This document shows positions 6,707 to 28,918 of a stretch of DNA of 64,000 nucleotides, in pieces. Position numbers and translations under genes: made by a program. The stretch spans positions 21,760 through 85,759 of the forward strand of contig RDXN01000049.1 in assembly GCA_004292855.1 (NCBI GenBank). The letters run 5' to 3'. Position 1 is the stretch's first letter, and each line of letters opens with the position of its first letter. The stretch comes from Cytophagales bacterium (GTDB lineage: Bacteria; Bacteroidota; Bacteroidia; Cytophagales; Spirosomataceae). Under the pieces are notes generated by a model. It made no database searches and was not told the origin of the DNA. It saw only the letters and a program-made list of their open reading frames with translations.

Positions 6707-6711
6707 ACAGT

Positions 6712-7065
6712 TTACTCAAAAAATTGCGCTTGAGCCGCCTTCGATAAGCTTTTTCGAACCAAATCATAGGAGTGGTCGATCCACTCCTGCACCTGCGACC
6801 AACGGAGGGTCGGGTGCATGATCACGGTGTTCCAATGAGTCTTGTTCATGTGATAACCAGGCTGCACCGCCGAGAACTCATCCCGTAATTGCACAGCCCG
6901 CTCAGGGTCGCACTTGAGGTTGACGCTGACAGGCTGCGCATCGAGCGAAATCAGGGCAAACATTTTACCCCCCACTTTGAGCACAAGTGTCTCAGGGTCA
7001 AACGGCAGAGATTCGGTTGTGCCGGGTTTACTCAGACAGTAGTCGCGGAGGGCTTCAACATTCAT
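6712..7065 (-). CDS. MmcQ/YjbR family DNA-binding protein
   Basis: ~117 aa with YjbR-type sequence (LRDYCLSKPGTTESLPFD...LKVGGKMFALI). Confidence 0.65.
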   Translation of the reverse strand: MNVEALRDYCLSKPGTTESLPFDPETLVLKVGGKMFALISLDAQPVSVNLKCDPERAVQLRDEFSAVQPGYHMNKTHWNTVIMHPTLRWSQVQEWIDHSYDLVRKSLSKAAQAQFFE

Positions 7066-7250
7066 CGGTTGCAGGCACGAACAATCATGACGACTAAACA
7101 AAACAAAAACATCACAATCGAGATCCGATTGATGCCGTGCATCATACGGAGGTTAAAACTCGACGGATCGTTGGGGTTGGGCTTGCGAAACACCCGCAGG
7201 AAATAAGCAAACACCGGCCCAATTTTGAGATAATCAATGAAGCGATTCAT
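7062..7250 (-). CDS. small hypothetical membrane protein (62 aa)
   Basis: C-terminal TM helix; stop overlaps the MmcQ start codon (ATGA), suggesting translational coupling. Confidence 0.3.
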   Translation of the reverse strand: MNRFIDYLKIGPVFAYFLRVFRKPNPNDPSSFNLRMMHGINRISIVMFLFCLVVMIVRACNR

Positions 7251-11663: not shown

Positions 11664-11827
11664 CCCCATCGGGGCGGCATGTTAATAGAAAACAAACGGT
11701 TTATTTGCAGTTAAAGCCCCATCGGGGCGGTATGTCCAGAGGTCGCACAATAACATATCGCCCCGATGGGGCTTTGGTGCGCGTTGTTGAGCCGTTTTCT
11801 ATTGACATGCCGCCCCGATGGGGCTAA
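11661..11827. repeat. nested palindromic repeat block (4 copies of GCCCCATCGGGGCG core), bidirectional terminator candidate
   Basis: outer arms 11661-11702 / 11790-11827 and inner arms 11713-11736 / 11752-11776 are reverse complements; block overlaps the stop codons of both convergent genes. Confidence 0.8.
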
Positions 11828-12774
11828 ACCGCGTGGCCAATGCGCTCTTTTAGTTCTTTCAGGCGGGTGCGTTGCATGACAAACTCGGTTTTGCCGTCGG
11901 TCAGGCGGACGATGTATTTGTCGTTTTCCCAGAACGAATAGTTTTTCAAATACGCCAAATTGAGCAGCACCGAACGGTTGATTCGATAGAATTGCGCGGG
12001 ATTGAGTTCGGCTTCGAGTTCGCTCAGGGTTTTGCGGAGTTGAACGGTACGGCCCGCCGTGTAGGCCAAATAGTTCTTGTTCTCTACTTCAATGTACCAA
12101 ATGTCCGTGACGGGCACGAGGGTTTCGCCTTCGTTGTCGGTAGCCTCTACGTGTGTTGGATACAGCGGGACAGGGCCGGACGGTGTTTCTGCTGAGGTTA
12201 CAGGTTTGCGGGCGTCGAGATTGTTTTTGAGGGCAGCTAGTTGGCGTTCCTGATAATCCTTGTAATCGAGAAAGAGGTTGACGTTCACGAATCCGTAGCC
12301 CACAATCAGGAACGGCAGGAAATAGTTGGCGAACATCGATCCTGTAAAGAAATATGAGGGAAAATACGAGTCCCACGAGTAGTTGGGGTAGAACACGGCG
12401 AGGTAGCGGAGGGTATTTGTGATGGGGCCAAACACCAGAATACACACGCAAAAAATGGGCAAAAACAGCAACTCGTATCGTACAACGGCCCCCAACGTTG
12501 GCTGGATCGAGCGGATATTCAGCACGCGCAAAAACCAGAGCGTGAGCTGCACAAAGATGAAGACGGAGAGCAGCTCGAACAGGTAGTAATACCCGAACAG
12601 CATTTTGAAATAATGCCACACGTTGCCCTGCAACAAGGGGGCGAAATCGCTGCCTTCGCTACGCTGGAGGGTCATGAGTTGGTAGAGGAAAATACCAACA
12701 AGCGTGAACAGAAGAAAGCGTTTCCACTGGCGTTTTGTGCGGAAGGTAAGCGGGATGGGCGGGGCCTCGGTCAT
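11824..12774 (-). CDS. membrane-anchored LytTR-family DNA-binding protein (one-component)
   Basis: N-terminal ~200 aa of TM helices, C-terminal LytTR domain (IWYIEVENKNYLAYTAGRTVQLRKTLSELEAEL...FYRINRSVLLNLAYL). Confidence 0.75.
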   Translation of the reverse strand: MTEAPPIPLTFRTKRQWKRFLLFTLVGIFLYQLMTLQRSEGSDFAPLLQGNVWHYFKMLFGYYYLFELLSVFIFVQLTLWFLRVLNIRSIQPTLGAVVRYELLFLPIFCVCILVFGPITNTLRYLAVFYPNYSWDSYFPSYFFTGSMFANYFLPFLIVGYGFVNVNLFLDYKDYQERQLAALKNNLDARKPVTSAETPSGPVPLYPTHVEATDNEGETLVPVTDIWYIEVENKNYLAYTAGRTVQLRKTLSELEAELNPAQFYRINRSVLLNLAYLKNYSFWENDKYIVRLTDGKTEFVMQRTRLKELKERIGHAV

Positions 12775-12983
12775 GCGGGGATTGGGCGTTGCGTATGCGA
12801 AGGTAAAACGGGGCCGTATTTCGGGCAAGTTTGAGGGCATTTCGCGCCCGAAAGTCGGCGAAACCCCCCTATTTCGGCGTGTAAAGGCCGTATTTGGGGC
12901 AACGGTTCTTGCACCGCCCAACACTCCCGACGTAGGTTTGCATCGTCGGAAACGAACAACGCCGACCCCAAACGAACAACGCC

Positions 12984-13895
12984 ATGAGCCTCGTCAAACT
13001 CGCCCTCCTCACGCTGATCGCCTACAGCCTGACCGTTTTTTTCGTCCACGCCCAAACCGCTCCCGTCGGTAGCGTCGGTTTGTTGACCGGGCGTATTCAG
13101 AGCACCGACAACCAACCGCTTGCCTACGTGAGCATCGGTATTCCCGGCACGCCTGTGGGTACAGTCTCGACCGAAGCAGGCACGTTCTCACTCACCCTCA
13201 AACCCGAAACCGCCCCCACAGACTCCGTACGGTTTAGTATACTTGGTTATGCACCACTAACGCTCACGGTAGCCAGTTTGCGTCAGCGGCTCGAAACAGG
13301 TCAGGCCCTTTCGCTGACCGAAACAGCCCGGCAACTGGCTGAGGTTCGGATCAAACCTGTGCCGGGCAAAACTATTGGCAACCAACGCGTAGCAACCAAC
13401 ATGAACACGAACCTGATGCTCAACAGTCAGCCCAGCCAAAATCTTGGTTCGGAGGTGGGTCGGCGGTTCAACTTGCCGGGCCGCACGGTTCGCCTGACTC
13501 AATACCGCGCTTATGTAGAGAGTAATTTCGAGGGAGTTACCCTACGCATTAACGTCTACGAGGCCCGGTCCATGAAACCCCTGCTAAACCGGAACGTGTA
13601 CGTGAAAATTACGGGTAAGCACAGCAATTGGATTGAAGTGGATCTGGAACCGCTCAATCTGGTAGCCGAGGGCGACGTGGTGGCGAGTGTACAATGGGTT
13701 GATAGTGAGGGCAAAGGATCGTATCTGGGTCTGCCCATTCAGATGCCCGCTTTTGCCACGCATATGTATAAATACGGTAGCCAAAACAAGTGGAAAACGT
13801 TCCGGGGTATGAGTACCGCCATGACGCTCGCCTTCTCACCCGTCGACAAGGACGACGTTAACGCTGGCCCTGAATCGCTGACGCTGGCTAAATAA
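12984..13895 (+). CDS. secreted CarboxypepD_reg-like domain protein
   Basis: signal peptide; carboxypeptidase-regulatory-like beta-sandwich motif (GRIQSTDNQPLAYVSIGIPGT..TEAGTFSL); divergent from LytTR gene. Confidence 0.55.
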   Translation: MSLVKLALLTLIAYSLTVFFVHAQTAPVGSVGLLTGRIQSTDNQPLAYVSIGIPGTPVGTVSTEAGTFSLTLKPETAPTDSVRFSILGYAPLTLTVASLRQRLETGQALSLTETARQLAEVRIKPVPGKTIGNQRVATNMNTNLMLNSQPSQNLGSEVGRRFNLPGRTVRLTQYRAYVESNFEGVTLRINVYEARSMKPLLNRNVYVKITGKHSNWIEVDLEPLNLVAEGDVVASVQWVDSEGKGSYLGLPIQMPAFATHMYKYGSQNKWKTFRGMSTAMTLAFSPVDKDDVNAGPESLTLAK

Positions 13896-13919
13896 GTTCA
13901 CGAAAAACACTCTCCTGTC

Positions 13920-14741
13920 ATGAAATCGCCCCTTCTCATCATCCTCGTTATCATTAGCACCACTGCCCTAGGTTATGCCGGTCGCCAACCGATCATGGCC
14001 GCCCTCGGCGTCGACACCACGACAACGTTCACGATCTGGCAATACACCGCCTACCGGGGGTTCTGGAATTTGTTGCTACCGGCTCTGGTGCTTGCCCTGC
14101 TCCACGGCCCGCGCCGGGTGTTCGACGAACTCGGCTGGAATGCCCCGGTACTGAAGGGATTGCTGGCGGGCTTCGTCATCACGTTGCCCATGCTGGTTGG
14201 GTTTGCGATTATGTTCGCGCCCGTTGATATGCCGTTGAACAAGATTTTGCTCAAATTTTACACCGGCTCGTTTTGGGCCGGACTAGCCGAAGAGACCTTC
14301 TACCGGGCGTTTTTGTTCGGGCAGTTGTACCGGCACGGGCGGGTTCCGTTCTGGTTGGCAGCCACCGCGCAGGGTCTTTTCTTTGGAATGGCTCACTTGT
14401 ATCAGGCGCAGGACATCCTACCCGCGCTCGGCATTTTTGCTATCACCTCAATGGGGGGCGTTTGGTTCGCATGGCTTTGGGTGAGCTGGCGCAATTTGTG
14501 GGTGCCGGTGGTAGTCCACATCCTGATGAACGCGTGGTGGGGCCTGTTCGCCGTCGACAATACGGCCCTGGGCGGATGGGTGGCCAACGGGTGCCGCGTG
14601 CTGACCATCGCGTTGTCGATCTGGCTCACGATCCGCGAACTTCGGAAGCAAGGCCGGACTGCGTGGGTGTGGCGCGAAGCAGTGCCTGCCAGCCCTCGTA
14701 TGCCCGATGCGCGGCTTCAGACTGCTCATCCGGTTCTATAA
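13920..14741 (+). CDS. CPBP family intramembrane metalloprotease (CAAX protease/Abi)
   Basis: EExxxR motif (GLAEETFYRAFLFG), FxxxH (FFGMAHLY), and second H (VVVHILMNAWWG). Confidence 0.75.
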   Translation: MKSPLLIILVIISTTALGYAGRQPIMAALGVDTTTTFTIWQYTAYRGFWNLLLPALVLALLHGPRRVFDELGWNAPVLKGLLAGFVITLPMLVGFAIMFAPVDMPLNKILLKFYTGSFWAGLAEETFYRAFLFGQLYRHGRVPFWLAATAQGLFFGMAHLYQAQDILPALGIFAITSMGGVWFAWLWVSWRNLWVPVVVHILMNAWWGLFAVDNTALGGWVANGCRVLTIALSIWLTIRELRKQGRTAWVWREAVPASPRMPDARLQTAHPVL

Positions 14742-16156
14742 TCCGCTCGTGATGAATGAGTCGGTGCAGGTGGGCTAGATCTGTAAAAAGGCCCGCCTGC
14801 AAACCAGCCAAGAACCCGGCTCCCTGCGCCGACACATCGGGGTTGCCCTGATTCACAACCCGTTTTCCCATCAAGTCGGCTAGAAATTGCAACACGAACC
14901 CGTTACTTGTGATGCCGCCATTCACCATTAGTTCGGACAGCGACACGCCCGTATCACCTTCCATTGCCACAATCACGTCCTTGATCTGGTACACAATCGA
15001 CTCCAAAGCCGCCCGCACAAGGTGGCTTTTGGTCGTTCCGAAGGTCAAGCCGTGTACCGATGCCCGGCGGTCCATTTGCCAATGGGGCGCACCCAATCCG
15101 CTGAAGGCTGGTACGAGATACACGCCCCCGTTGTCGGGCAGGGCGTGGGCTAGGGCTTCGGTTTCGTGGCTTTCGGCAAACAGGTCGAGCGCGTTTTTGA
15201 GCCATTCGACGGTGGCCCCGCACGAGACAATCACCCCTTCGAGGGCGTAATCAACCGAGGGGCGGTCCCGCCCGTCTTCCCGGCTCCAGCCAATCGTCGT
15301 CACCATGCCCCGCCCCCACTGGCTTTGGGCCGATGTTCATCAAAATAGAACAGCCCGTGCCGAGCGTAGCTTTGGCCGAACCGGGCGCAAAACAACCCTC
15401 GCCAATCAGGGCCGCGTGCGAGTCGCCGATCATGGCCCCGATAGGCAACGGGCGGTCGAGCAGTCCACCAAACGTTGTTTCACCAAAATAGGCCGACGAT
15501 GACTTGATTTCAGGCAGGTTCAGCCCCGTCAGGCCAAAGCGGTCGAGCAGGTCGGTGTCCCAGGAAAGCGTTTCGAGATTGAAAAACAGGGTTCGCGACG
15601 CGTTGGTGTGGTCGGTGGCGTAACTCGCGCCGTTTGTGAGTCGGTACAACAACCACGTGTCGACCGTACCAAAAAAAGCGTCACCCGCTCGAATGGTCTC
15701 ACCCACTGTCGGGACGTTTTCGGCCAACCAAATGAGTTTGGTTCCCGAAAAGTAAGGGTCGATAAACAGGCCGGTGCGCTGCCGTACAAGTGGCTCAAGG
15801 CCCTCGTTTTTAAGTCGTTCACAAATGGCAATGGAACGTTTGCACTGCCAGATAACGGCCCTGTGCAGGGGTTGGTCCGCCCGGTTCCAGACCACGAACG
15901 TTTCGCGCTGATTCGAGATACCCCCCACATGCAAGTCGGCCACATTGCCCCCACCCGCTCTGAACGCACTCAGGCATTCGCGCACCGAATCGACAACGGT
16001 CTGGTAAATGCCGTCGGGGTCTTGCTCCACGAAACCTTCACCAAAATAATGAGTCGTGAGCGGCACCGAGGCCCGGCAAACCACGTGCCCGTTTTTGTCC
16101 AGAATGAGCGTTTTGGTGCTGCTCGTACCCTGGTCGATGGAAAGGATATAATTCAT
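14626..16156 (-). pseudogene. glpK: glycerol-kinase-like FGGY carbohydrate kinase, frameshifted
   Basis: N-part (15251..16156) and C-part (14626..15306) are in different frames; GlpK motifs DQGTSSTK, NQRETFVVW, DPYFSGTK, GTVDTWLLYRLT, TDHTNASRT; junction in GCCCCGCCCCCAC run at 15307-15319. Confidence 0.8.
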
Positions 16157-16167
16157 TGGCTTTAAAA

Positions 16168-16279
16168 TAACCGTTGAAGCCAACGGCAATGGATAAAAAG
16201 TCCCTGCGGGACTGCGCTGATCTAGTTTTGCAGTCCCGCAGGGACTTTCCACATATTGCCGTTGACTTCAGTCAACGGT
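16168..16279. terminator. triple-hairpin element; central perfect 19-bp stem followed (minus-strand RNA) by UUUUUAU
   Basis: AAAGTCCCTGCGGGACTGC / GCAGTCCCGCAGGGACTTT at 16196-16247, flanked by CCGTTGAAGCCAACGG and CCGTTGACTTCAGTCAACGG hairpins. Confidence 0.6.
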
Positions 16280-17243
16280 TCCTAGAGCTAGCTTTGTCAA
16301 TAATCACGGCCAACAAAATCACCCCTCCTTTAACCACCTGTTGCCAGAATGGCGAGACATTGAGCAGAACCAGCCCGTTGTTCAGTACACCGATGATGAT
16401 GGCCCCTTGCACCGTACCCAACACACTCCCACGCCCGCCCGACAGCGAGGTGCCGCCGATAACGACAGCCGCGATGGAGTCGAGTTCGTAGCTCGTGCCC
16501 GCGTTCGGTTGGGCCGAGTCGAGCCGCGCCGTGACCAGCAGGCCCCCCACGGCCCCCCACGCCCCGGCAATGAGACCGTACGTTTCACCCCTTCCACGTT
16601 GACGCCGGACAACCGGGCCGCACTCTCACTGCCCCCAATGGCGTAGATGTAGCGACCCAGCCGGGTTTTATCGGTCAGGAAAACGGCACTGGCCACCACC
16701 ACCGACATCCAAACCGGCACCGGAATACCCAGCAGCCAGCCCGTGCCGAGGTAAGTGAACGAATCGCCGAGGCCCGTGATTGGAAAACCGCCTGTCCAGA
16801 GCATCGTCAGGCCTCGCGCGATGGTCAGCATGGCGAGCGTTGCCACAAACGGTGGCAGGTTGAACCGAGTGATGGCCCAGCCGTTGAACCAGCCTAGCGC
16901 AGAGCCGGTGAGCAGCCCCGCCAACATGGCCCCCAGCAGGGTGAAGCCGATGAACAAATCGGCGTTTTCGAGCGGGATGCCATTGCGGAACAGGCCCGCC
17001 GTGATGGCCCCCGCCAACGCCAGCACCGACCCCACCGATAGGTCAATGCCGGCAGTAAGCACCACGAGCGTCATGCCGGTCGAGATACAAACGTTGACCG
17101 AAATTTGTCGCAGGACGTTCCATAAGTTATTTACAGTCAGAAACTTATTTGACAACAGGCTAATGCCTAGGCAAAGCACAAACAACGCAATGAGCGACTG
17201 AAAGCGGGCCAGTGAGGGTTTAGGAGAGAGAGTTAGTTGCATA
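16272..17243 (-). pseudogene. rbsC: ribose-type ABC transporter permease (RbsC family), disrupted by frameshift/deletion
   Basis: N-part (to about 16590) and C-part (16272..16550) are in different frames; the conserved ...[11 protein letters not shown] and [51 protein letters not shown] segments overlap at the junction. Confidence 0.8.
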
Positions 17244-17250
17244 GTGATGT

Positions 17251-17357
17251 ATTGAGTGATTGAGCGAATGACGGTCCGCCGTCGCGGTGATTGAGTGAAC
17301 CATCCGGCAGACACTCAATCACCGCGACGGCGGACCGTCAATCGCTCAATCACTCAT
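17251..17357. repeat. 45-bp inverted repeat (one mismatch), 15-nt loop, between rbsA and rbsC
   Basis: TGAGTGATTGAGCGAATGACGGTCCGCCGTCGCGGTGATTGAGTG / CACTCAATCACCGCGACGGCGGACCGTCAATCGCTCAATCACTCA; right arm overlaps the last codons of rbsA. Confidence 0.9.
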
Positions 17358-18872
17358 TGATTTAGTTATGGCGGCCTTCAGTAATACCTCGTCGGTGGCT
17401 TGAGCGATGGGAATATTTGCAGTGAGTTGGCCTTCAGACAGGACCAGAATCCGGTCGGCGAGGGCGAGTAGTTCGGGAATCTCGGAGGAGGCCACGAGGA
17501 TGCTCATGCCCTGATCGGCTAATTGACGGATGAGCGCGTATAACTCGTTTTTGGCGTGTACGTCGATACCCCGCGTGGGTTCGTCGAGCAGCAGCAGACT
17601 GGGTTTTGTTGCCAACCATTTCGACAGCACGACTTTTTGTCCATTGCCCCCGCTCAGGTTGCGCACGGGGGTACGAACTGAGGGCGTTTTGATGTGCAAA
17701 TCCGTTACGTACTGCTCGGCGAGGGCCGTTTCTTTAGCCCGGTTCAACACCCCAGCCGTTTCGATAGAAGCCAGGGCGGTTAGGCTGATGTTGGTCTGCA
17801 CGTCGAGGTCGAGCAGCAGTCCATCGCGCTTGCGGTCTTCCGGCACGAGGGCCATGCCTGCCCGGATTGCCTGGGCGGGATTTTTGATCTGCACCACTTG
17901 TCCGTTCATGCGCACGGTCCCGTTCTTGGGTGTGGAGTGCAGCCCAAACAGGGTTTCCAGCAGTTCAGTACGGCCCGCGCCCATCAGCCCAAACAGGCCT
18001 ACAACCTCCCCTTTTTCAACCGTGAGAGAAAGGTTTTTCAGTACATTATCGCCCCGTCGTACCGGGTGGGATAGGCTCAGATTTTCCACGGCTAACATGG
18101 CCTCAACATCAGCGTCCTCCTTTTGGCTTTTGGGTTTTTCGCGCTGCCGAGCCACTAAATCGCGGCCCACCATTGCCCGAATCAGGTGGTCGTGGGTCAT
18201 GTTGGTCATTAGGCCCTCCTCCACTGATTTGCCGTCGCGCAGCACCACGTAGCGGTCGGCAATGGTGAAAAGTTCGTCGAGTTTGTGGGAGATATAAACG
18301 ACCGCTTTTCCCCGCTTGCGGAGGTCACGGATGATACCGAACAAGACCGCCACCTCGCTGTCGGAAATGGCCGAGGTGGGTTCGTCCATGATGAGTACGT
18401 CGGCATCGTTCAGTAACGCCTTCGCCATTTCGACCACCTGCTGTTGTCCCACTTTCAGGTCGCCCACGAGCGTGTTGGGGGCGAGGTTCAGGTGTAAATC
18501 GGCCAGCAGGTTGGCGGTTTGTTGGCGCATGGCCGGGCGGTCGAGCGTGCCCAGGCGGGTGGTCAGTTCGCGACCCAGAAATACGTTTTCGGTGATGCTC
18601 AGGTATGGAATCAGGTTCAATTCCTGATGAATAATGGCTATTCCGTGGGCCTAAGCCTCGCGCACCGATGCAAACCGAACGGGTTTTTCGTTCAGATTCA
18701 GTTGCCCCTCATAATCGGCAATGACGCCCGACAGGATTTTCATCAGGGTCGATTTGCCCGCGCCGTTCTCACCGATGACCGCCGTGACCTGCCCTTTTAA
18801 AAAGGACAAACTGACGTTGTCCAAGGCCGTGACTCCTGCGAATTTTTTGGTTATGTTGTTGGCTGTCAGCAT
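17346..18872 (-). pseudogene. rbsA: ribose-type ABC transporter ATPase (RbsA family), interrupted by in-frame TAG
   Basis: 73-aa N-fragment with Walker [10 protein letters not shown] ends at TAG (18651-18653); the same frame continues AHGIAIIHQELNLIPYL... through both ABC domains (LSGGNGQK signature). Confidence 0.8.
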
Positions 18873-18879
18873 AGTTTTA

Positions 18880-19002
18880 AACCACAGAGTTCGCGGAGTT
18901 TTTTGTCATCCCGACGCAGGAGGGATCTATTCTGTTTAGAGCCAAGTTTAGTGTAGGCAAGCTAGATCCCTCCTGCGTCGGATGACAAAAAACTCTGTGG
19001 TT
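18880..19002. repeat. REP/MITE-like element copy 3, extended form with AACCACAGAGTT flanks
   Basis: AACCACAGAGTT...TTTTGTCATCCCGACGCAGGAGGGATCTA ... TAGATCCCTCCTGCGTCGGATGACAAAAAACTCTGTGGTT. Confidence 0.9.
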
Positions 19003-19618
19003 AAAAAACTTGTATCGGAATCACACTCAACTCACCGACTCGCAAATGCGCCCGATTCAGTTCCACTGCCCCGACAAACCTGATTTTCCGACCGGGTTTG
19101 GCATCGCTCCGCAATCCCGGCACCACGCGCTTGCGGATGATGTCGTTCAACTCAGCAGCCACACTGTTGAGGTCGGCGGTGTTGGAGAATTCGGTGATCT
19201 GAATCAAGCCCGACGCATCGCGGGCGGCATTGCTGTAGATGTACTCGGTTGCCAGTCGGGCAGTTGCGCCAGTGGTTAGTTGCACGGTAACGTCGGTCTC
19301 GCCAACCGTCGATACCACGCCCTCGCCCTTCACCAGGAAGTATCGGATGTTACCAATGCCCAGCGCGTGGGCGTGAGCGTCGAACGCCTTATTTTTATCG
19401 GTTTTCAGTTGCGCCAATAAGCTCGACAACTCCACTGCCCGCTCTGCACCCGTTGGCAAAAGTTTATTGGTCCAGAACGTTTCGGCGTAGCGAGCCGGGT
19501 CGAATTTGCCCAATGCGCCAGCCGCCCGCACTTCGCTTAGAGGCCGCAAATACACCGAATTATAGCCAATCAACCCAACCAGAGCCAGCCCAATACCGTA
19601 CTTCATTCCTTTGTTCAT
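19001..19618 (-). CDS. DUF2291-like periplasmic lipoprotein (ABC-sugar-transporter-associated)
   Basis: start MNKGMKYGIGLALVGLIGYN; start codon overlaps the binding-protein stop (ATGA). Confidence 0.55.
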   Translation of the reverse strand: MNKGMKYGIGLALVGLIGYNSVYLRPLSEVRAAGALGKFDPARYAETFWTNKLLPTGAERAVELSSLLAQLKTDKNKAFDAHAHALGIGNIRYFLVKGEGVVSTVGETDVTVQLTTGATARLATEYIYSNAARDASGLIQITEFSNTADLNSVAAELNDIIRKRVVPGLRSDAKPGRKIRFVGAVELNRAHLRVGELSVIPIQVF

Positions 19619-20532
19619 GGCTTGTCGGGGGTTTCGTAATCGGCAATATTCGCTTGGGTAATCAACTCGACGGCAACCGGAATCCGTTGGGCGAAGTCGC
19701 GCTTGCCGTTGAGCCATTGATCGGCGAATTGGGCGGCTGTTTTGGCCATCGTTTGGGGCGATTGCAGGCCCGTTGCCCGAATCTTGCGGTCGCGGATGGA
19801 TGTCATCACATCGTCGGCCCCGTCGAAGCCAAACACCTTGACAATCTGCACTTTACCCGCCGACACGAGGGCCTGATACGCGCCCAACGCCATTGCATCG
19901 TTGCCGCAAAACACGGCGTCGATGTCGGGGTGGGCCTGCAAAATCGACTCCAGCACGTCCATTGCCTTGTTCCGGTCAAAATCGCCCGATTGTTGGGCCA
20001 CCATCTTCAGGCCGGGGTAGCGGTCCACCACGCTGTGAAATCCCTTCGAGCGGTTCCAAGTGTTGTTGTCGCCCACCATGCCCAAGATCTCGACGTAGCT
20101 GCCCCGGCGGTTCATCGTTTGCACGAAATACTCGCCAATGGCTACGCATCCCGAATAATTATCGGACAAAATCTGCGACGTCGCCACGTCCGACGCGTTC
20201 ACCTCGCGGTCCATGCAAAACACCGGCACGCCCGCTTCTTTGGCCTTCGCCACGTTCACAATCGACCCCTCCGAATCGGTCGGATTCAGCAAAATCGCCC
20301 CAAACCCCGACACGATGGCGTTCTCAAAATGGTCAGCTTCGAGAGCCGGGTTATTCTGCGAATCGAAGATTTTGGCCTCATAGCCCAGGCGTTTGGCCTC
20401 AGCCGCTGCCCCCTCGGCCAACACCACAAACCAGGGGTTATTGAGTGTCGAGACGATCACAGCCATCTTTTTGGGCTGATCCGTGTCTGTTTTGCCGGTG
20501 CAGGAGGCCAGAAGCAGGAGGAGCCATATCAC
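19615..20532 (-). CDS. sugar ABC transporter substrate-binding lipoprotein (RbsB/periplasmic-binding-protein type 1)
   Basis: lipobox LLLLLASC; RbsB-like fold motifs (VIVSTLNNPWFVVLAEGA, VFCGNDAMALGA, GFDGADD). Confidence 0.85.
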   Translation of the reverse strand: MIWLLLLLASCTGKTDTDQPKKMAVIVSTLNNPWFVVLAEGAAAEAKRLGYEAKIFDSQNNPALEADHFENAIVSGFGAILLNPTDSEGSIVNVAKAKEAGVPVFCMDREVNASDVATSQILSDNYSGCVAIGEYFVQTMNRRGSYVEILGMVGDNNTWNRSKGFHSVVDRYPGLKMVAQQSGDFDRNKAMDVLESILQAHPDIDAVFCGNDAMALGAYQALVSAGKVQIVKVFGFDGADDVMTSIRDRKIRATGLQSPQTMAKTAAQFADQWLNGKRDFAQRIPVAVELITQANIADYETPDKP

Positions 20533-20585
20533 CCGTTGGCTTTAGCCAACGGATAAGGGGAATGAGATCATTTCATTATTTTTAA

Positions 20586-21992
20586 TCAAGGCATCACCGT
20601 CAGAATCACCCGTTGATAGCGCGTCAGGGCGGGGGTTCCGTTGTCGGTTACGGCCAGAATAATGTGCATGGTTTCGGGAACGAGGGCTTTAGGAACCACC
20701 AGGGTTGCTACTTTTTGGTCTTTGTTTTTGATGATAGGCAGGCGGGCACTCTCAAACGTCCCGGCTTCGCGGTAGTAAATCCATTCGTATGTCAGGGCAT
20801 TACCGTCGGGGTCGGAGGAGCCGTCGGCACTGAGCGTGACGGTTTCGCCACTTTTGACCCGGATTTCGTTTGCATGCCCCAGTTTGGCAACCGGCGGGTG
20901 ATTGGCTTCGTTGTAGGGCTTAACCGTCCAGTCGATGCGGGCGGCAAAATCGTTTTGGTAATGCTGCCGCCAACGCCAGATCGTTGCCTTATTGCTGTCG
21001 TAATAATTTCCGTCCTTACCCTTTACCTGATCTTCGGCGTCGGACCAGATTGGACGGGTTTCGGGTTCCGAAAACCACTTGCGCGTGCGGGGCGTATACA
21101 GCTCGTACCGACCGCCCCACCCACCCCAGTCCGGCCGTTCGGGTACACTCAACCCGTTCACAATCAGGTTAAAAAAGCTGGGTGTGTCGCCCTCCATAAT
21201 ATAAACCGTGTGCGGATGCTCGGCCCCCAACGGCCCGTGGTTCTTACGAATATTGGCGTCTAGCCACGCATTGTTGACGATGCTAGAATCGGGACCAGCG
21301 AACCCCGGCGCAAACGGAAACACGTCGCCACTGATGCCCCGCCAGGTCGAATATTCGTAGGCTCCCCGGTCGTGGATGCCAGGGCTAACAATAAAAAACA
21401 GGTTCGGAAACGTTTTGCGGAGCCAGGGGCCGCTATCGTCCTGATCGGAGATCGTGTAGACCCGCAGTTTAGCCACAAACCGGTCCAGTTCGTCAGGCGT
21501 GCGGGTTTGGCGCACTTTCCAGAGAGCTTGCGCCAGGCAGTTGGCCCCGCCCCAAACCGGCACCCAAACCGGGCGCGGGTCGGCCTTGTCGACCACCGAA
21601 ATAATGTGTTCGGAGCCTTCCGAATCGTTGCCCGGCCCCACGGCGTTCATGCCATATTTGGCAACACTTGGTTTGATAATGCGTAACAGAGCCTCTGTTT
21701 CGGGATAGCCTTTTTCGTGCAGCAACAGGTTGTTCCGAACCTTGCCATAAGCCTCCACAATCCGCCGAATTCGCTCCGGTGCCACCCGATTCCGTTGATG
21801 CACCGAGGTTGTGGCAATCAGACCTTCTACGTCCCATTGGTTCACGTAGGTCAGAAACCGCACCATCGACTGCGCGTCGTCCGGCTCATTTTCGATATCG
21901 GTCAGCACCAGCACCCGCACTTTTTGAGGTGTTTGCTGCGCAGTGGCAAGAAGGGGGAGAAAGGTCAGGAGAAGCAGGAATACGTGTTTCAT
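20586..21992 (-). CDS. secreted DUF1593 protein (nucleoside-hydrolase-like N-domain + Ig-like C-domain)
   Basis: signal peptide; [32 protein letters not shown]-terminal beta-sandwich. Confidence 0.7.
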
Positions 21993-21997
21993 GGCTA

Positions 21998-23449
21998 TTA
22001 CGGCACGACCGTCACAATCACCCGTTTGTAGCGGGTGAGGGCGGGGGTGCCTTTGTCGGTTACTTTCAGGATAAAATGAAGCGTTTGCGAGGTGGTTACG
22101 GTCGGCGCAATGGGGCGGGCTTCGTAGATGTTCGAGACGAAGTTTTGGTAATTTATCGTCCCCGAATACGTCCCGGCTTCGGGGTAATGCATCCAGCGGA
22201 AACTCATCGAATCGCCATCGGGGTCGGTCGATTCGGAGGCTCGTAAATAGAACGTTTCGCCCGATTTAACCGTCAGATTTTCGGGGTGCGACAGGCGCGG
22301 AACGGGTGGGTGATTGGCCTCCTGGTACGATTTCGTACACCAGTCCATGCGGGCGGCAAAGTCGTTCTGAAACTCCGTGCGCCACCGCCAAATCGTTGCC
22401 CCAATGCTCTTGGGGGCTTTTTCCGTTTTCTCGGTCGATGGTCCCATAGCAAACCGAGGAGCTGCATAGATCGAATCAGCCGAATTGGTCCAGATAGGGC
22501 GGGTTTCGGGGTCGTCTTTGGGGGCACCTTGCGGGCGAAAGCGCGTTGTGGCTACGCTGGTGGGTTGTTGAAGCACATACCGACCACCCCACCCGCCCCA
22601 ATCCGGGTGTTCGGGGGCGTTCAACCCGTTCGGAATCAGGCCCAAAAACGAGGGAGTATCGCCCTCCATACCAAATGCCACGTCGGGGTATTGCGCCCCC
22701 AGTGGGCCATGCCCCTGCTGAATGTTCTGAGCCAGCCAGGCATTCGTGGCATACTCCGGTTGGGTTCCGGGTTCGCTCGTGTTAATGCCCCGCCAGGTCG
22801 CGTGTTCGTAGCCGTAACCGGGACTGACAACGAAAAAGACGGTCGGGAAATTCTTGCGAATCCAGGGACTGGTGTCGTCCTGATCCGAGATCGTGTAGAC
22901 GCGTAGTTTGCGGTAGAGTTGTTCGGCCTGTTGCGAGGTGCGCGTTTTTTGAATTTTCCAGAGGGCCTGCGCCAGCGTGTTCGGCCCGCCCCATACCGAC
23001 ACCCAGAGAGGTCGTCCGTCCAGCTTTTCGAGTTGGCGAATAATCCATTCCGAGCCTTCGGAGTCGTTGCCCTCGCCCACGCCCGTTAGGCCATATTTAG
23101 GCAAGCCTTTTTTGATTACGGCTTTCAGGGTTTGGGCAGTCGGGTAGCCGAGTTCGTGTTTGAGCAAATTAGGTTGGACAAGTCCGTAGGCGTCCACAAT
23201 CTTGTGGATGGTTTCGGGAGCTACCCGCGTTTGCAGGTGAATCGACGTGGTGGCAACGAGTCCTTCAATATCCAACTGATTGGCATAGGTCAGTAACCGC
23301 ACCAGCGACTGCGAATCGTCCGGCTCGTTCTCCATGTCGGTCAGCACCAACAACCGTGTTTTTTGGGCAGATGCCAAGAATGGGAAGAGGGTAAATGAGA
23401 GTAGGAGCAGTAGTTTCATAGTTTTAGATGGGAACATTGGGAACCGCAA
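21998..23449 (-). CDS. secreted DUF1593 protein, tandem paralog
   Basis: same architecture and motifs as 20586..21992 ([31 protein letters not shown]). Confidence 0.7.
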
Positions 23450-23476
23450 CGGCGGACCGTGCGGATGACGCGGACA

Positions 23477-23570
23477 TTTTTTGTCATCCCGACGCAGGAG
23501 GGATCTACTTCCTTGACGCTCAAATTGAATGTAGGCAAGCTAGATCCCTCCTGCGTCGGGATGACAAAAA
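23477..23570. repeat. REP/MITE-like element copy 4
   Basis: canonical arms; preceded by GGAACCGCAACGGCGGACCGTGCGGATG. Confidence 0.9.
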
Positions 23571-23571
23571 G

Positions 23572-24525
23572 TCATCCGCGATCTAATAATTCCAGTGCCA
23601 CCCGTTCAATGCCCGTTTCGGATAACCCGTAATGGGCGAAAATCTCCAGTTGCGAACCCGTAACGGTGTATTCGTCGGGGATGCCCATGATGCGGAAGCG
23701 GTTCCGAAAGCCATTTTGCAACAGAAACGACGCACACCCCTCCCCCAAGCCACCATACACGCTGTGTTCCTCGACCGTGACGATTGGGCATCCATCAGCG
23801 GCCACCATCGCCAGCAAATCATAGTCGAGCGGCTTGATCGTGTGCATACTCACCACCCTTGCCCGGATGCCCTGCTCGGTCTCCAACCGACGAGCCGCCT
23901 GCAAAGCCGGATAGACCGTTTCGCCGGTTGCAATGAGCGTCAGATCCTCGCCTTCGCGCACCACCCGACCTTTGCCAAACGCAAATTCGCGGTTAGTTTC
24001 GGAGAGCAACGGCATGGTTTTCTTGCCGAAGCGCAGGTATACGGGGGTGTTCATTTGAGCCGCCAGCCGAACGGCCTGCTCGGTCTCGAAATTGTCGGCG
24101 GGGGCCACGATAGTCAGGTTGTGAACGGCACGAAGAGCTGCCAAATCGTGCAGGCTGTGGTGGGTTGAACCCAACGCGCCGTAGCTGACGCCCGCGCTGA
24201 TACCCACGAGCCGGACCGGATTGTTGGAGTAACAGACATCGGTTTTGATCTGCTCGAACGAACGGGCCGTCAGGAAACACGCGGGCGATACCGCAAACAC
24301 GTTTTTCCCCGCCGACGCCAGGCCAGCCGCTACGCCCACCAGATTCTGTTCGGCAATACCGATTTCGACGATCTGCTTCGGAAATCGCTGCCCAAACGGG
24401 ACGAGTTTGCCCGACCCCCGCGAGTCGCTCGTGACAACGAGCAGGTTTCGGTCGGTTTCGGCCAGGGTTTGGAGCGTGGCCGAGAATATGTCGAGGTTAG
24501 CTTTTTCCATATGTTTTTCAACCAC
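23572..24525 (-). CDS. transketolase, C-terminal (pyrimidine-binding) subunit
   Basis: 317 aa; transketolase pyrimidine/C-terminal domain motifs (IGIAEQN, GSTHHS). Confidence 0.9.
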   Translation of the reverse strand: MVEKHMEKANLDIFSATLQTLAETDRNLLVVTSDSRGSGKLVPFGQRFPKQIVEIGIAEQNLVGVAAGLASAGKNVFAVSPACFLTARSFEQIKTDVCYSNNPVRLVGISAGVSYGALGSTHHSLHDLAALRAVHNLTIVAPADNFETEQAVRLAAQMNTPVYLRFGKKTMPLLSETNREFAFGKGRVVREGEDLTLIATGETVYPALQAARRLETEQGIRARVVSMHTIKPLDYDLLAMVAADGCPIVTVEEHSVYGGLGEGCASFLLQNGFRNRFRIMGIPDEYTVTGSQLEIFAHYGLSETGIERVALELLDRG

Positions 24526-24528
24526 AGT

Positions 24529-24622
24529 TTTTTTGTCATCCCGACGCAGGAGGGATCTACTCGGTTAGTGTTCAAGTCGGGGGTAAGCAAAGTAGATCCC
24601 TCCTGCGTCGGGATGACAAAAT
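24529..24622. repeat. REP/MITE-like element copy 5 (AACCACAG / CTCTGTGGTT flanks)
   Basis: canonical arms. Confidence 0.9.
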
Positions 24623-24631
24623 ACTCTGTGG

Positions 24632-25666
24632 TTAATCGTTTAACTCCAGTTTTGCAAAGAAATCGTTGAACATCAGGCCCGTATCCAACTGTGTGTATAC
24701 CCGAATCGGTCGCCCTTTGTGGTTGTGGGCGTACACCCCAGCCGCGTTGATGCGCGGGGCCTGCCGAACCACATACGTACTCGACGAAGGGTCGGCCTCG
24801 AACGACGATTGCAGGGCCGTGAGCAACACCAGCGGACTATCGCCCAAAATGTACGTTTCACCAATGTTCAAAAACGACTGAATCCGGGTCATCAGGCTCT
24901 CCAGCGTTCCGGCCAGATACGCCCCCGTTTTGCCACGCGGCTTCACCTTCGTGAGCAGTTGGGCATACGAAATCAGGCACTGCCGGTACGCGTTTCGGGG
25001 AATCTGCCACAACGCCACCGCCGACCGATTGAACACCGCCCGTGCAGCCGCCTGATCAATATTCAGGTTGTATTCGACCTCGGTATACCCCGGTGGGGGC
25101 GTGGCCAACTCAGTATATTCAGGACCGCCGATCCAGATAAGGGTCAGTTTATCAGCTATTTGCGGATTGGTCAATACCGCCGAAGCGATTTCGGTAAGTC
25201 CAGCCCCGCAGACCACATAAAGCGGTAGTTTGGTATCGGTCCGCAAAGCTTCCTGAATAATGAAGTTGACGGCCTCGTTTTTTACGGGCGTGCTGTCGTT
25301 CACCATTGCCGTGTTCGACCCGGCAAAAACCGGAATCGGTTTGGTCACGTTCATGATACTCAGCACCTCTCGCGCTTTTTTGGCAGCATTGTCGGCCTGC
25401 GTGGTGGAGCGGTCGAAGCCATCGCCGACGCGCAGGTGCGACCCGATTATGCCCCGCACCTCCACCGACGGCGACATCAGCAAATGCGCCAACTGAAACA
25501 GTCCGTCGGGGTCGCCACTGAAGTCGTTATCCACGATCACCCGCATCCGAGGTTGCACCATTGCCAGACCAGTGGGTTGGGCAACGGCCCCAAACGATGC
25601 CAACCAGATGATGGAACTTAGCCAAAAGACCAGTTTAGGAGCTTGTTCGATGGTCTGTTTTGTCAT
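24632..25666 (-). CDS. inosine-uridine-preferring nucleoside hydrolase family protein, probably secreted
   Basis: VIVDNDFSGDPDG aspartate cluster; N-terminal hydrophobic signal; start ATG lies inside the terminus of repeat copy 6 (ATGACAAAA = MTK). Alternative start at MRVIV is possible. Confidence 0.65.
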   Translation of the reverse strand: MTKQTIEQAPKLVFWLSSIIWLASFGAVAQPTGLAMVQPRMRVIVDNDFSGDPDGLFQLAHLLMSPSVEVRGIIGSHLRVGDGFDRSTTQADNAAKKAREVLSIMNVTKPIPVFAGSNTAMVNDSTPVKNEAVNFIIQEALRTDTKLPLYVVCGAGLTEIASAVLTNPQIADKLTLIWIGGPEYTELATPPPGYTEVEYNLNIDQAAARAVFNRSAVALWQIPRNAYRQCLISYAQLLTKVKPRGKTGAYLAGTLESLMTRIQSFLNIGETYILGDSPLVLLTALQSSFEADPSSSTYVVRQAPRINAAGVYAHNHKGRPIRVYTQLDTGLMFNDFFAKLELND

Positions 25667-25750
25667 CCCGAAGCATGAGGGATCTACTCCGCTAACGCTC
25701 AAGTTGAGAGTGGACAAGCTAGATCCCTCCTGCGTCGGGATGACAAAAAA
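25657..25750. repeat. REP/MITE-like element copy 6 (left arm degenerate: GAAGCATGAGGG)
   Basis: read directly. Confidence 0.85.
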
Positions 25751-25773
25751 TTGTGTTACAGTATTTCGCTCTT

Positions 25774-26598
25774 TCATTCTTTCGCTCTTTCACCCAACTC
25801 CTCCAACGCCTGTTGATACTGATCGTAACTAGGCACGCCGTGATGCCATTTCAGTTGATTTTCCATGAAACTCACGCCCTTGCCTTTCACCGTGTGGGCA
25901 ATCACCAAACTTGGCTTCCCTGTTGCAAACGGCAGCGCATCGAACGCTTCTTGCAGGGCCGTGAAGTCGTGTCCATCCACGTGCCGGACCGCCCAACCGA
26001 ACGCTTCAAACTTCTGGTCGAGCGGGTCGGTGCTGCATACGTCGGCGGTGGGGCCGGTAATTTGCAGGGTGTTCTTGTCGACAATGGCGCAAAGGTTGTC
26101 GAGCTTGTAGTGCGACGCCAAGAGGGCCGCTTCCCAGTTAGAACCTTCGGGTAGTTCGCCGTCGCCCATGAGCGTGAACACGCGGTAAGCGCGATCATCC
26201 AATTTAGCCGCGAGAGCCGTTCCCACGCTTAACGACAGCCAGTGCCCCAGCGAACCGGTGTTTTGCTCCACGCCATACACTTTGCGCGTGGGATGCCCAA
26301 TGTAGTGGGAGTTGTACCGGCAAAGTGTTTGCAAGTCAGTTTCCGGGAAAAAGCCCAGGTCGGCCAGTACCACATACAGGGCCTCGACCGTGTGGCCTTT
26401 GCTCTGAATATACCGGTCGCGGTCGGGCGAGGTAAAGGTGTCGGGACCAACGTTCAACACGGTATTATAGAGCACGTTCAGGATGTCGATGCACGACAGA
26501 CTACCGCCCGTATGCCCAGCCCCTGCCCCATAAATGTATTGGAGGATGTTCCGGCGGTATTGCGTCGATTTCTGGGCTAGTTCGCTAACGGTTAGCAT
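25774..26598 (-). CDS. transketolase, N-terminal (TPP-binding) subunit
   Basis: 274 aa; GHTGGSLS, GDGELPEGSNWEA TPP-binding motifs. Confidence 0.9.
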   Translation of the reverse strand: MLTVSELAQKSTQYRRNILQYIYGAGAGHTGGSLSCIDILNVLYNTVLNVGPDTFTSPDRDRYIQSKGHTVEALYVVLADLGFFPETDLQTLCRYNSHYIGHPTRKVYGVEQNTGSLGHWLSLSVGTALAAKLDDRAYRVFTLMGDGELPEGSNWEAALLASHYKLDNLCAIVDKNTLQITGPTADVCSTDPLDQKFEAFGWAVRHVDGHDFTALQEAFDALPFATGKPSLVIAHTVKGKGVSFMENQLKWHHGVPSYDQYQQALEELGERAKE

Positions 26599-27490
26599 GT
26601 TCTGTATGGGAGGGCTTTATGAAACCCTGTTGAGCCAGCCACTCGGCAAATCGCTCGATCCACCCATCCGAGGGCAAATTCTGTTTATTCATGCCGAACC
26701 CATGCCCCCCTTTTGCGTACAAATGGAGTTCCGTAGGTTTCTTAGCCGCAAGCCATGTGTTGTACAAGTCCACGCTGTGTGGAGCCAGATTCAGTTGATC
26801 GTCGGAGGCACAAACCAGGAACATCGGGGGCGCATCGGTTGGCAAGTTGCCCTGCATGGCTGCCGGGAAAAAAGCGTAAATGGGGGCCGCAAACGCTGGT
26901 TTATTGTCGGCATTGTAGCCAAAAACAGCCCCCGCTGTCACTGTCCCCCCCGCCGAAAAACCCATAATTCCGATTTTGTTTGGATCAACGCCATACGTAG
27001 CCGCGTGTTTGCGGACGTAGGCGATAGCCGCGCGACCATCGGCCATCGACAGGGGAATTGTGGCCTTGTTTTCGGCGTCCCACTCCTGTTTGCGCGGCCC
27101 GTCGATGCCCGCCATCATGTCGGCAAACGGGTCGTCGGTGTTGATGCGGGCCGTCCGGTATTTTAACACAAACGCCGTGACACCCTTTTTTGCCAGACAT
27201 TTCGCCACGTCATTACCCTCACTATCAATGGACAGAAAGTGAAACCCTCCGCCCGGACAAATCACCACCGACGTCCCCGTTGCCAGAGCCGGATCAGCCG
27301 GGAACACCGTCAGCGTTGGGTTGACGACGTTATAAACCGTCATCAGGTTAATGGCGTTTTTGTTGTTCTTTTTCTCGGTCCAGTTCCAGGTTTCCGAGCC
27401 GGGTGCGGCCCCGTCGTAGATTCGCACCTCGGTTTGTTGCGCCTGAGCCAGCCCAGCCAGCAATACGCCAAGTAGTAGTAGTCGTGTTTT
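26585..27490 (-). CDS. secreted alpha/beta-hydrolase esterase
   Basis: signal peptide; GFSAGG nucleophile elbow, HGFG C-terminal His. Confidence 0.7.
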   Translation of the reverse strand, partial: KTRLLLLGVLLAGLAQAQQTEVRIYDGAAPGSETWNWTEKKNNKNAINLMTVYNVVNPTLTVFPADPALATGTSVVICPGGGFHFLSIDSEGNDVAKCLAKKGVTAFVLKYRTARINTDDPFADMMAGIDGPRKQEWDAENKATIPLSMADGRAAIAYVRKHAATYGVDPNKIGIMGFSAGGTVTAGAVFGYNADNKPAFAAPIYAFFPAAMQGNLPTDAPPMFLVCASDDQLNLAPHSVDLYNTWLAAKKPTELHLYAKGGHGFGMNKQNLPSDGWIERFAEWLAQQGFIKPSHTEHANR

Positions 27491-27505
27491 CATATTGGTA
27501 TTCAT

Positions 27506-28918
27506 TTATGCCGTATGCTGATAGACGTCCCAACCCATATAATTCTCGAACGCTTCGCGCAAAACGCCCGCCGTTCGCGAAGCATTCATGACCACGTGAT
27601 GCTCAAACCCATTGCGGCACACGTACTGCATCAGGTTTTGTAGGTTGTCGATTTTGGCCACCGCCCGGTTGCCGAAGGTATTGAGCGGGTCGTCGGTGAG
27701 GACCCCCTCGCCAATGTACGCCTTCATGATGCCTTTGGGGTCGTCGGTGCTGATGCGCCCAAACGTGAGGGGCGACGCGGGCGTGCGACCGTCCAACGCG
27801 CCATAAGTGTTTTCTTCGCCCACCGTCGTGCCCAGAATCGGTGCCGTACTCATCTGTATATCAGGCAGAAATGACTTGGCCCAGTTGCCGCAATGAAACA
27901 GCACACACTTATTTTCGTCGTCGGCGTAGTTGTTGTTCCAATCGACCAACGCGCTTGGCGAACCAGACGCGAGTTGCATGGCGTACATGCTCAACGTACC
28001 CGTCACATCGACCTCACACGCGCTCGGCAGCATGTTCTCGCTCATGATGCTCATGTTGGTGCAGACGTTGCAGCCGTAATTCTGTTGCAACGAGGTCCAG
28101 CACTGAATAGCCTTGGCATCAAGCGCGTGTTCGGCCATGAACTCGGCCAGTACCACATCGAGCTTGGCAATCTGCACCAGTCGGTCGTCGGGGGTGCGGC
28201 CTGTGGGGGCGTAGGCCCGGATGGTTTCTAACTTATTTTTTACGGACTGATCGTTGATAGTCAGCTTGTTGGCGTTGCCCAGAATCTTCGACAGATCGAC
28301 CGTTACCACCGAAATTCCGTGCCGTTGCAGGATTTTCTCGCTGTAACGCACGGTGTTGAACGCCCCCGGTCGCGCCCCCACCGCCCCAATCCGCACCGTC
28401 CGCAGGCCGCGCACCACCCGGCAAACAGCTTTGAAATGCAACAGATCCTGGGCAAAACTGGGGTCCGACGGATGCACCACATGCTTGGTTGTGAGCGAGT
28501 ACTTGATACCAAACTGATACAGGTTGTTGCACACCGAAATCTTGCCACACCACGCATCGCGCCGACGCGCCACGTCCATCCGGTTCAGATCGTCGGGGTA
28601 CGCCTGAACAAGCACAGGTACGTCTAACCGAGCGAGTTTGAGGGTTTCGGCCACGCCTTTTTCATCGCCGAAGTTGGGCAAAACGACCACCACGCTCATG
28701 ATTTCGTCGGCATGACGCCGGAAGAGTTCGGCGCATTTTTGGGCCTCCTGAAACGTTTCGACGCCCCCCAGTTTGGTTGCCTGCTCGTCGAGCATGATCG
28801 GTTTCAGACCCGCTTTCTGAAAGGCGTCGAGCAAATCGGCGCGGCATTCGCCAACGAGTTTGTCAGGGAAAAAGTCACGGTTGCCGATGATTACACCGAC
28901 GGAAATGGGGTTGGTCAT
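27506..28918 (-). CDS. L-fucose/L-arabinose isomerase family protein (COG2407-like)
   Basis: 470 aa; fucose-isomerase C-domain-like region (FHCGNWAKSF, VDWNNNY). Confidence 0.55.
   Translation of the reverse strand: MTNPISVGVIIGNRDFFPDKLVGECRADLLDAFQKAGLKPIMLDEQATKLGGVETFQEAQKCAELFRRHADEIMSVVVVLPNFGDEKGVAETLKLARLDVPVLVQAYPDDLNRMDVARRRDAWCGKISVCNNLYQFGIKYSLTTKHVVHPSDPSFAQDLLHFKAVCRVVRGLRTVRIGAVGARPGAFNTVRYSEKILQRHGISVVTVDLSKILGNANKLTINDQSVKNKLETIRAYAPTGRTPDDRLVQIAKLDVVLAEFMAEHALDAKAIQCWTSLQQNYGCNVCTNMSIMSENMLPSACEVDVTGTLSMYAMQLASGSPSALVDWNNNYADDENKCVLFHCGNWAKSFLPDIQMSTAPILGTTVGEENTYGALDGRTPASPLTFGRISTDDPKGIMKAYIGEGVLTDDPLNTFGNRAVAKIDNLQNLMQYVCRNGFEHHVVMNASRTAGVLREAFENYMGWDVYQHTA

Follow-up and report, generated by a model that had tools for sequence, protein, structure and literature searches.

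Probable stepwise pseudogenization of a CUT2-type sugar importer and a GlpK-like kinase in a D-apiose-type gene cluster of a Cytophagales bacterium

The decay of unused catabolic operons under a "use it or lose it" regime is familiar in host-restricted or niche-restricted bacteria. Herein, we describe a five-gene operon that resembles such cases, in that one inactivating hit was apparently followed by independent hits in neighboring genes while useful adjacent genes remained constrained, but differs from them in that two stages of the process were caught in two close natural populations. Since the process is seen at two stages, the hits can be placed in sequence. The operon lies on the minus strand of a 64,000-nucleotide stretch of DNA (hereafter, the window) from a Cytophagales bacterium of the Spirosomataceae (assembly GCA_004292855.1, contig RDXN01000049.1, positions 21,760 to 85,759), and encodes an importer of the CUT2 type and a GlpK-like kinase within a transketolase-dependent D-apiose-type cluster. 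Stepwise pseudogenization of this importer and its kinase is, in our view, highly probable. It is an ordinary and well-documented kind of progressive pseudogenization.

Among described systems, the Escherichia coli ribose transporter RbsABC with its binding protein RbsB (CUT2), together with the kinase GlpK, has the same Pfam families and domain order as the operon. In NCBIfam, the ATPase matched best to XylG/GguA/AraG/RbsA, the binding protein to RbsB and the kinase to GlpK. However, the locus falls under every equivalog cut-off: 527 versus a cut-off of 745 for RbsA (NF008030), 226 bits versus 337 for RbsB (NF007936), and, for GlpK (TIGR01311), 532 bits versus 590 even when the intact kinase allele of a sister strain was scored. 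The only model whose cut-off was passed was the GlpK subfamily NF000756 (527.6 bits versus 498). Because the equivalog scores lie below their cut-offs, the names rbsA, rbsC and glpK serve here as family labels and not as function assignments.

In gene architecture, the locus matches a second system, the D-apiose cluster ECSF_RS02670-02715 of E. coli SE15. This cluster supports growth on D-apiose and comprises genes for an FGGY kinase (aplK), a binding protein of the RbsB type, a DUF2291 protein, a double ABC ATPase with its permease, and a transketolase split into aptA and aptB (PMC13001218). The definition of the D-apiose degradation I cluster goes back to Carter et al. 2018, cited in PMC13001218. 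Identities of the window or sister proteins to those of SE15 lie between 33 and 50%: 49.8% for the transketolase N-terminal subunit, 41.0% for its C-terminal subunit, 40.3% for the ATPase, 40-44% for the permease, 37.8% for the kinase and 33% for the binding protein. The published criteria for an apiose cluster are at least 5 of 10 genes at no less than 40% identity and no less than 80% coverage, including aplK, aptA and aptB, within 10 consecutive coding sequences (PMC13001218). The apiose-type genes of the locus all lie within 10 consecutive genes, and aptA, aptB and the ATPase pass; aplK, at 37.8%, narrowly fails and the permease is split, which leaves the locus outside the definition. The SE15 DUF2291 protein was too diverged to match at E ≤ 1e-5, and no match to the SE15 SDR oxidoreductases and regulator was found among the twelve locus proteins compared.

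The locus differs from the SE15 cluster in two further respects. Three of the corresponding genes are pseudogenes in the window, and the locus has additional genes. The upstream part of the cluster (20586..28918, minus strand, identified by Pfam), in which the genes are intact, encodes two Sde182/DUF1593 nucleoside-hydrolase-like proteins, an IU-nucleoside-hydrolase-like protein, an esterase and a fucose-isomerase-like protein, all additional to the SE15 set, along with the transketolase C-terminal and N-terminal subunits as separate genes. Literature searches on DUF2291 and on apulose returned nothing. By its architecture, the locus appears apiose-like, with an apiose-like sugar as its putative substrate.

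As read from Pfam matches along the minus strand (14626-20532), the operon runs binding protein, DUF2291, ATPase, permease, FGGY kinase. The RbsB-like periplasmic sugar-binding lipoprotein (19615..20532; Peripla_BP_4) is followed by an intact DUF2291 periplasmic lipoprotein (19001..19618), which has a single match to PF10054 at profile positions 2-199 of 200 and can be aligned over its full length to its orthologues. Next come the pseudogenes of a CUT2-type, double-domain ATPase similar to RbsA and XylG (17346..18872; double ABC_tran and NCBIfam), an RbsC-like permease (16272..17242; BPD_transp_2) and a GlpK-like FGGY kinase (14626..16156; Pfam and NCBIfam). The presence in a single operon of Peripla_BP_4, one polypeptide with two ABC_tran domains and BPD_transp_2 identifies the system as a CUT2 importer. 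The same five-gene order was found in five orthologous loci, those of Spirosoma sp. 48-14, a Chitinophagaceae metagenome-assembled genome (MAG), Sphingobacterium suaedae, Maribacter sp. and a Saprospiraceae MAG. The nearest orthologues in the genome-contig scan were 65-67% identical, and the nearest named relatives of the kinase in a protein database search were from Fibrella and Spirosoma, at ~70% identity. In all five loci every gene is one uninterrupted frame, whereas in the window three adjacent genes are disrupted, each by a different lesion. This is what the initial annotation had proposed, and its coordinates were essentially right. Since the frames are broken where both near and distant orthologues are intact, the three genes are classed as pseudogenes.

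The close comparison was provided by a sister population, found via the cluster of the intact kinase and comprising the MAG GCA_013297945.1 and contigs of runs SRR9948920-34. These contigs are ~99.2-99.5% identical to the window over 21 kb. In the window, the ATPase gene contains a premature TAG at codon 74 (Q74*; 18651..18653, minus strand), formed by a CAG>TAG change relative to the sister contigs. The site is CAG (Gln) in 5/5 sister contigs that cover it and Gln in the two nearest orthologues, and an intact ATPase of 508 amino acids is present in all sister contigs spanning the gene. Pfam recovers the window's ATPase in two pieces, 18654-18872 and 17346-18620, which would also give 508 amino acids if read through; the split by one in-frame TAG, as first annotated, is thus confirmed. 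TAG is the stop codon of 9 of 48 genes in the window, so it is an ordinary terminator here, which argues against stop-codon recoding, and no tRNA gene, as a candidate suppressor, was found in the window. Elsewhere in the same gene, the second ABC signature region (~17640, codon 411) reads LSGGNGQK, while LSGGNQQK is invariant in the five orthologues; the sister strains, with their intact ATPase, carry this Q411G change as well.

The permease gene is broken by a net -1 frameshift at 16572..16573 (minus strand), where the sequence reads "gtc tc att". Its N-terminal part is in one frame and its last ~100 codons are in the -1 frame, so that Pfam finds two open reading frames (ORFs), 16382-17242 and 16272-16550, the former matching positions 2-180 and the latter positions 193-269 of the BPD_transp_2 profile. 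The frame change had been placed near 16575-16600; the change itself is real, but its site is 16572/16573. At that site the two bases "tc" occupy the place of two codons, Tyr-Thr/Ala/Gly, of the orthologues. Among the 120 best permease homologues searched for the surrounding motif, 118 have it, and in all of these (118/118) the Tyr is at K+4 with identical spacing to the ARL motif. From this alignment, the lesion is best read as a 4-nt deletion, GTC TAC NNC ATT > GTC TC ATT, that would have removed the invariant Tyr codon. Deletions of 1 nt or 7 nt were considered as well and were ruled out by the same fixed spacing and Tyr.

The frameshift is identical in all nine contigs examined: that of the window and eight from the sister population, the latter representing seven runs of another project and the second MAG. 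A protein database query with the repaired permease found no intact allele above 86% identity, and the nearest matches all belonged to other species. Two T>G changes at 16555 and 16558 (16555..16558, minus strand) replace Leu by Trp and Val by Gly in the true permease frame; both fall within a transmembrane segment and are confined to the window and one sister contig.

The kinase gene lost five nucleotides, GAGTC, at 15316..15317 (minus strand), as judged from the sister alleles. The sister sequence GTG GAG TCG GGG CGG GGC ATG encodes VESGRGM, and the window has the same sequence without GAGTC. As a result, Pfam finds FGGY_N at 15251-16156 and FGGY_C at 14626-15306 in separate pieces. A repaired-kinase query of the protein database recovered an intact allele of 511 amino acids with 99% identity, and the kinase is intact in all sister contigs that cover the site. 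The frame change had been ascribed to a G/C homopolymer near 15310. The frame change stands, but it results from the loss of 5 nt beside a G run. Loss of one copy of a "catgg" repeat was also considered; it would account for the length of 5 nt but not for the bases lost, as the sister allele shows GAGTC. Two observations on this gene concern its length and its end. The kinase of this lineage has 511 amino acids, while most of the homologues listed are shorter, typically 489-504, and its 3' end overlaps a convergent CAAX-protease-like gene (13920-14741) by 116 nt (14626-14741).

A further lesion was found at the 5' end of the binding-protein gene, where the window strain has lost 58 nt relative to the sister strains. 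In the sister strains, a 58-nt element (sister contig L022, 5563-5620) of the same family as the hairpin at 16168-16279 sits between two copies of a 20-mer mini-hairpin, CCGTTGGCTAAAGCCAACGG; in the window the element is absent and a single small hairpin remains as the junction (20533..20552, minus strand). The loss takes away the ATG and the charged start of the signal peptide and leaves the gene body intact. The only start left is a GTG, giving MIWLLLLLASC, with an in-frame TAA four codons upstream, and the gene caller applied to the Logan contigs starts the protein at Met23 (283 amino acids), without a signal peptide. An exact protein look-up from the GTG start gave no match, because gene callers place the start elsewhere. 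By comparison, the sister protein has 339 amino acids from its ATG, and its first 34 codons, with the ATG and the Lys/Arg-rich beginning of the signal peptide, read through two hairpin elements; the signal peptides of the orthologous binding proteins are ordinary ones of the lipoprotein type and begin with charged residues. Export of the window's binding protein is therefore probably impaired, as far as its N-terminus allows a prediction. The upstream genes of the operon had been annotated as intact, which is correct for DUF2291 and not for the binding protein. It had also been suggested that the orphaned binding protein may serve another transporter; this is less likely for a copy that, as in the window, has neither the ATG nor the charged segment of the signal peptide.

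The sister population gives the ancestral states. The lesion alleles of the ATPase and the kinase never appear in the sister contigs: the ATPase TAG and the loss of GAGTC are private to the window strain and derived. Since the permease frameshift is common to both populations, while the ATPase and kinase are intact in the sisters, the permease broke first. The three lesions are thus distinct events, as initially proposed, but they are not equivalent, one being lineage-wide and two private. The comparison shows that the net -1 frameshift arose in the permease before the window strain and the sister population split by ~0.5-0.8%. Located in a transmembrane segment, it should abolish transport. 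With uptake gone, the rest of the operon would have drifted; the events of this second step are seen in the alignments, and loss of uptake is their presumed cause. Private to the window strain are the CAG>TAG change at codon 74 of the ATPase, the 5-nt deletion in the kinase and the loss of the 58-nt hairpin element from the binding-protein gene; the two non-conservative changes in the permease are shared by the window and one sister contig.

Within the sister population, contigs L021-L028 (SRR9948920-34) were found to be mosaics of two haplotypes when compared with 12049-18858 of the window. Blocks of window-type alleles occur in several of them, among others L028 (18465-18144 and 16558/16555) and L026 (16320-16096), which indicates co-existing strains or recombination in that population.

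Next, we compared substitutions with those in the sister strain. The ratio of nonsynonymous to synonymous differences was 19:14 in the operon and 2:9 in four intact upstream genes of the cluster, namely the two Sde182-like genes, the transketolase C-terminal gene and the IU-hydrolase-like gene (Fisher p = 0.036). Changes at sites invariant in four outgroups were also counted, those in this lineage being set against those in its Spirosoma sister, and gave 11:3 for the ATPase, 3:0 for the permease, 10:4 for the kinase and 4:0 for DUF2291; Q411G of the ATPase is among these changes. Per-gene dN/dS relative to the sister strain had too few substitutions to decide. Relaxed constraint on the operon genes would account for these counts, which are suggestive only.

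Large hairpins occupy three gene junctions of the operon. A palindromic repeat of the family TTTTGTCATCCCGACGCAGGAGGGATCTA lies at the DUF2291/ATPase junction (18880..19002, -69 kcal/mol), a hairpin with 45-bp arms at the ATPase/permease junction (17253..17356, -95 kcal/mol) and a third hairpin at the permease/kinase junction (16168..16279, -77 kcal/mol); their z-scores range from -12 to -16. The 5' arm of the second overlaps the last ATPase codons, and this hairpin is single-copy in the window. The third, on the minus strand, contains two terminator-like sub-hairpins followed by T runs and has a 4-nt indel at 16177 in the sister strains. Large hairpin sites are common here, with ~20 in 64 kb. 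An Rfam search found no family matching the hairpin elements, and a sigma-70 promoter scan performed at chance level, its consensus not applying to Bacteroidota promoters.

The families of 18880-19002 and 16168-16279 are multi-copy intergenic palindromes, one of them with a 58-nt strain indel, and are accordingly classed as repetitive extragenic palindrome (REP)- or miniature inverted-repeat transposable element (MITE)-like. They resemble MITE-like palindromes and those of the REP or bacterial interspersed mosaic element (BIME) type in being imperfect palindromes of 90-125 nt that form several families and occupy many intergenic spacers, in varying between strains (58-nt and 4-nt indels) and in breaking short-read contigs, which end inside repeats of the 18880-19002 type. 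They differ in lacking an Rfam match and in that some copies in the window overlap the 5' or 3' end of a coding region.

Several points weigh against the decay of the operon as proposed here. The public assembly and the Logan contigs possibly derive from the same run, in which case they represent independent assemblers and not independent data, and both consist of contigs only. The source is a MAG, to which exact look-ups of window proteins lead (TAE29010.1, TAE29018.1 and TAE29027.1), and the lesions may therefore not be carried by the whole population. The sister "samples" come from consecutive runs of a single project, and their contigs are haplotype mosaics, so that they amount to about one extra population rather than eight. 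The ATPase, kinase, binding-protein and DUF2291 genes of that population are intact although its permease is broken, possibly because the frameshift is tolerated. When the operon is compared with all other genes (22 nonsynonymous, 33 synonymous), p rises to 0.13, the counts being small, and the binding-protein gene shows no rate excess at invariant sites (6:7).

If the lesions were artefacts of sequencing, assembly or a MAG chimera, the operon would be intact in the cell. The MAG origin, the possible sharing of reads between assemblies and the G runs beside the kinase lesion would fit this explanation, but we judge it most improbable. Contigs of a second assembler (Logan, run SRR7244341) are identical to the window base for base over 11799-18923 and 18963-23467, with all lesions included, and the permease lesion recurs in the eight contigs of a second project's population; this reproducibility is at contig level only. 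The lesions comprise a C>T nonsense change and deletions of 5, 4 and 58 nt, which are neither homopolymer miscalls nor other types made by consensus errors. A Pfam scan of ~47 other genes in the window found none split, nearly all of those with a match covering most or all of a profile, and the chance of three lesions falling in three adjacent genes out of 52 is ~0.002. The three lesions are very probably true mutations. The initial view that they reflect operon decay rather than one assembly error is supported by the concordant second assembler, by the restriction of lesions to this operon and by the sister alleles. A different objection is that the permease frameshift is tolerated, through two polypeptides or ribosomal -1 frameshifting, and that the operon works in the sister strains and was lost only in the window strain. 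The frameshift is indeed fixed across the lineage while the sister ATPase, kinase, DUF2291 and binding-protein genes are intact, and a GTG or TTG in the downstream frame could start a C-terminal piece of 92-94 amino acids, one of which is called by gene callers. However, the site ("acg gtc tca ttg", 16572) contains neither an X XXY YYZ slippery heptamer nor a homopolymer and the orthologues are all single-frame, neither split nor frameshifted, so it does not qualify as a programmed -1 frameshift. The deletion also removes an invariant Tyr from a transmembrane segment of fixed length, the lineage has excess changes at invariant sites, and, with a divergence as low as ~0.5%, the intact state of the other genes needs no further explanation. 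Tolerance of the frameshift is accordingly quite unlikely.

The hairpins had been proposed as the trigger: inserted at the junctions, they would have caused transcriptional polarity, silencing downstream genes and so leading to decay. The hairpins themselves are real and very stable, they sit at three junctions, and the one preceding the kinase has terminator-like stems with T runs. As a cause of decay, however, they are largely refuted and have only the slightest probability. All three are also found in the sister strains, beside intact ATPase and kinase genes; the intact operon of Spirosoma sp. 48-14 has hairpins at its ATPase/permease and permease/kinase junctions, and the first of these and its counterpart in the window have the flank AAATCAATGAG and the core GAGTGATTGAGCGA in common; elements of the 18880-19002 family lie at junctions between intact genes (two copies, 23478-24621) and inside the 5' end of an intact ORF (25658-25748); and the first lesion struck the permease, not the most distal gene. 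Because the hairpins are present in the sister strains and in the intact operon of Spirosoma sp. 48-14, they are, on this comparative evidence, read as resident, genome-wide repeat-like palindromes, apparently older than the decay and not its cause. It could also be argued that the losses were selected, a knock-out of importer and kinase being advantageous by avoiding a toxic sugar phosphate or by saving cost in a substrate-free bioreactor. This fits four operon-specific disruptive changes in one strain, and the location of all disruptive differences from the sister strain in the operon, which makes up 27% of the aligned 21 kb. Yet the ATPase and kinase genes together have ~21 substitutions with one nonsense change among them, and the 21 kb contain four indels, two of them disruptive, numbers that fit the neutral expectation. 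There is no obvious benefit of further hits once the permease is dead, and the sister population showed no independent knock-outs arising in parallel. We therefore regard selected loss as unlikely. One combined possibility remains to be weighed, that the permease frameshift is tolerated by splitting or recoding or that hairpin repeats were co-opted as the coding start of the binding protein; we consider it very unlikely. In the second case, repeat sequence would provide the signal-peptide start of the sister binding protein, the loss of the 58-nt element would turn this start off in the window strain, and gain and loss of repeat elements would act as an on/off switch for lipoprotein export.

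Stepwise pseudogenization thus remains the preferred explanation, and it has consequences for annotation. The broken genes should be kept as pseudogenes, and metabolic reconstructions of this Cytophagales MAG should give no credit for uptake or phosphorylation of an apiose-like sugar. Judging by the numbering of the protein accessions, the public annotation may already treat the three genes as pseudogenes. Large junction hairpins are normal in Spirosomataceae-like genomes and should not be taken for disruptive insertions. The locus offers a small and well-ordered example of operon decay, in which the permease would have been followed by the ATPase, the kinase and the binding-protein start while neighboring catabolic genes are still constrained.

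Further observations concern the repeats and the rest of the window. Palindromes of ~90 nt, of the form TTTTGTCATCCCGACGCAGGAGGGATCTA ... reverse complement, occur in eight copies in the window (2371-2461, 6615-6707, 18880-19002, 23478-23570, 24531-24621, 25658-25748, 60839-60933 and 62758-62848), with variants at 37792-37889, 44465-44556 and 55053-55146; the family is also present in Spirosoma sp. 48-14 (contig L007, 7953-8035). The copy at 25658-25748 lies inside the 5' end of the IU-nucleoside-hydrolase-like ORF 24632-25777, whose Pfam match begins only at residue 80, so that the gene either starts further downstream or reads through the repeat as well. Another hairpin unit, AGCCCCATCGGGGCGGCATGT, is present in four copies in one intergenic spacer (11655-11832), and a Logan contig (L001) ends there.

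Two observations away from the operon concern differences from the sister MAG. The YjbR gene (6712-7101) has a synonymous divergence of ~0.30, compared with ~0.01 in its neighbors, which suggests a recombination import or a hypervariable patch. The Sde182/DUF1593-like gene at 21998-23449 has a 15-nt in-frame indel, CGCACCGGCGGACCG, at ~23018. Finally, a single ORF of 1170 amino acids (44572-48084) fuses a sulfatase domain, with SGSH_C, to a GH78-type alpha-L-rhamnosidase, and adjoins a second sulfatase gene and SusC/SusD genes.

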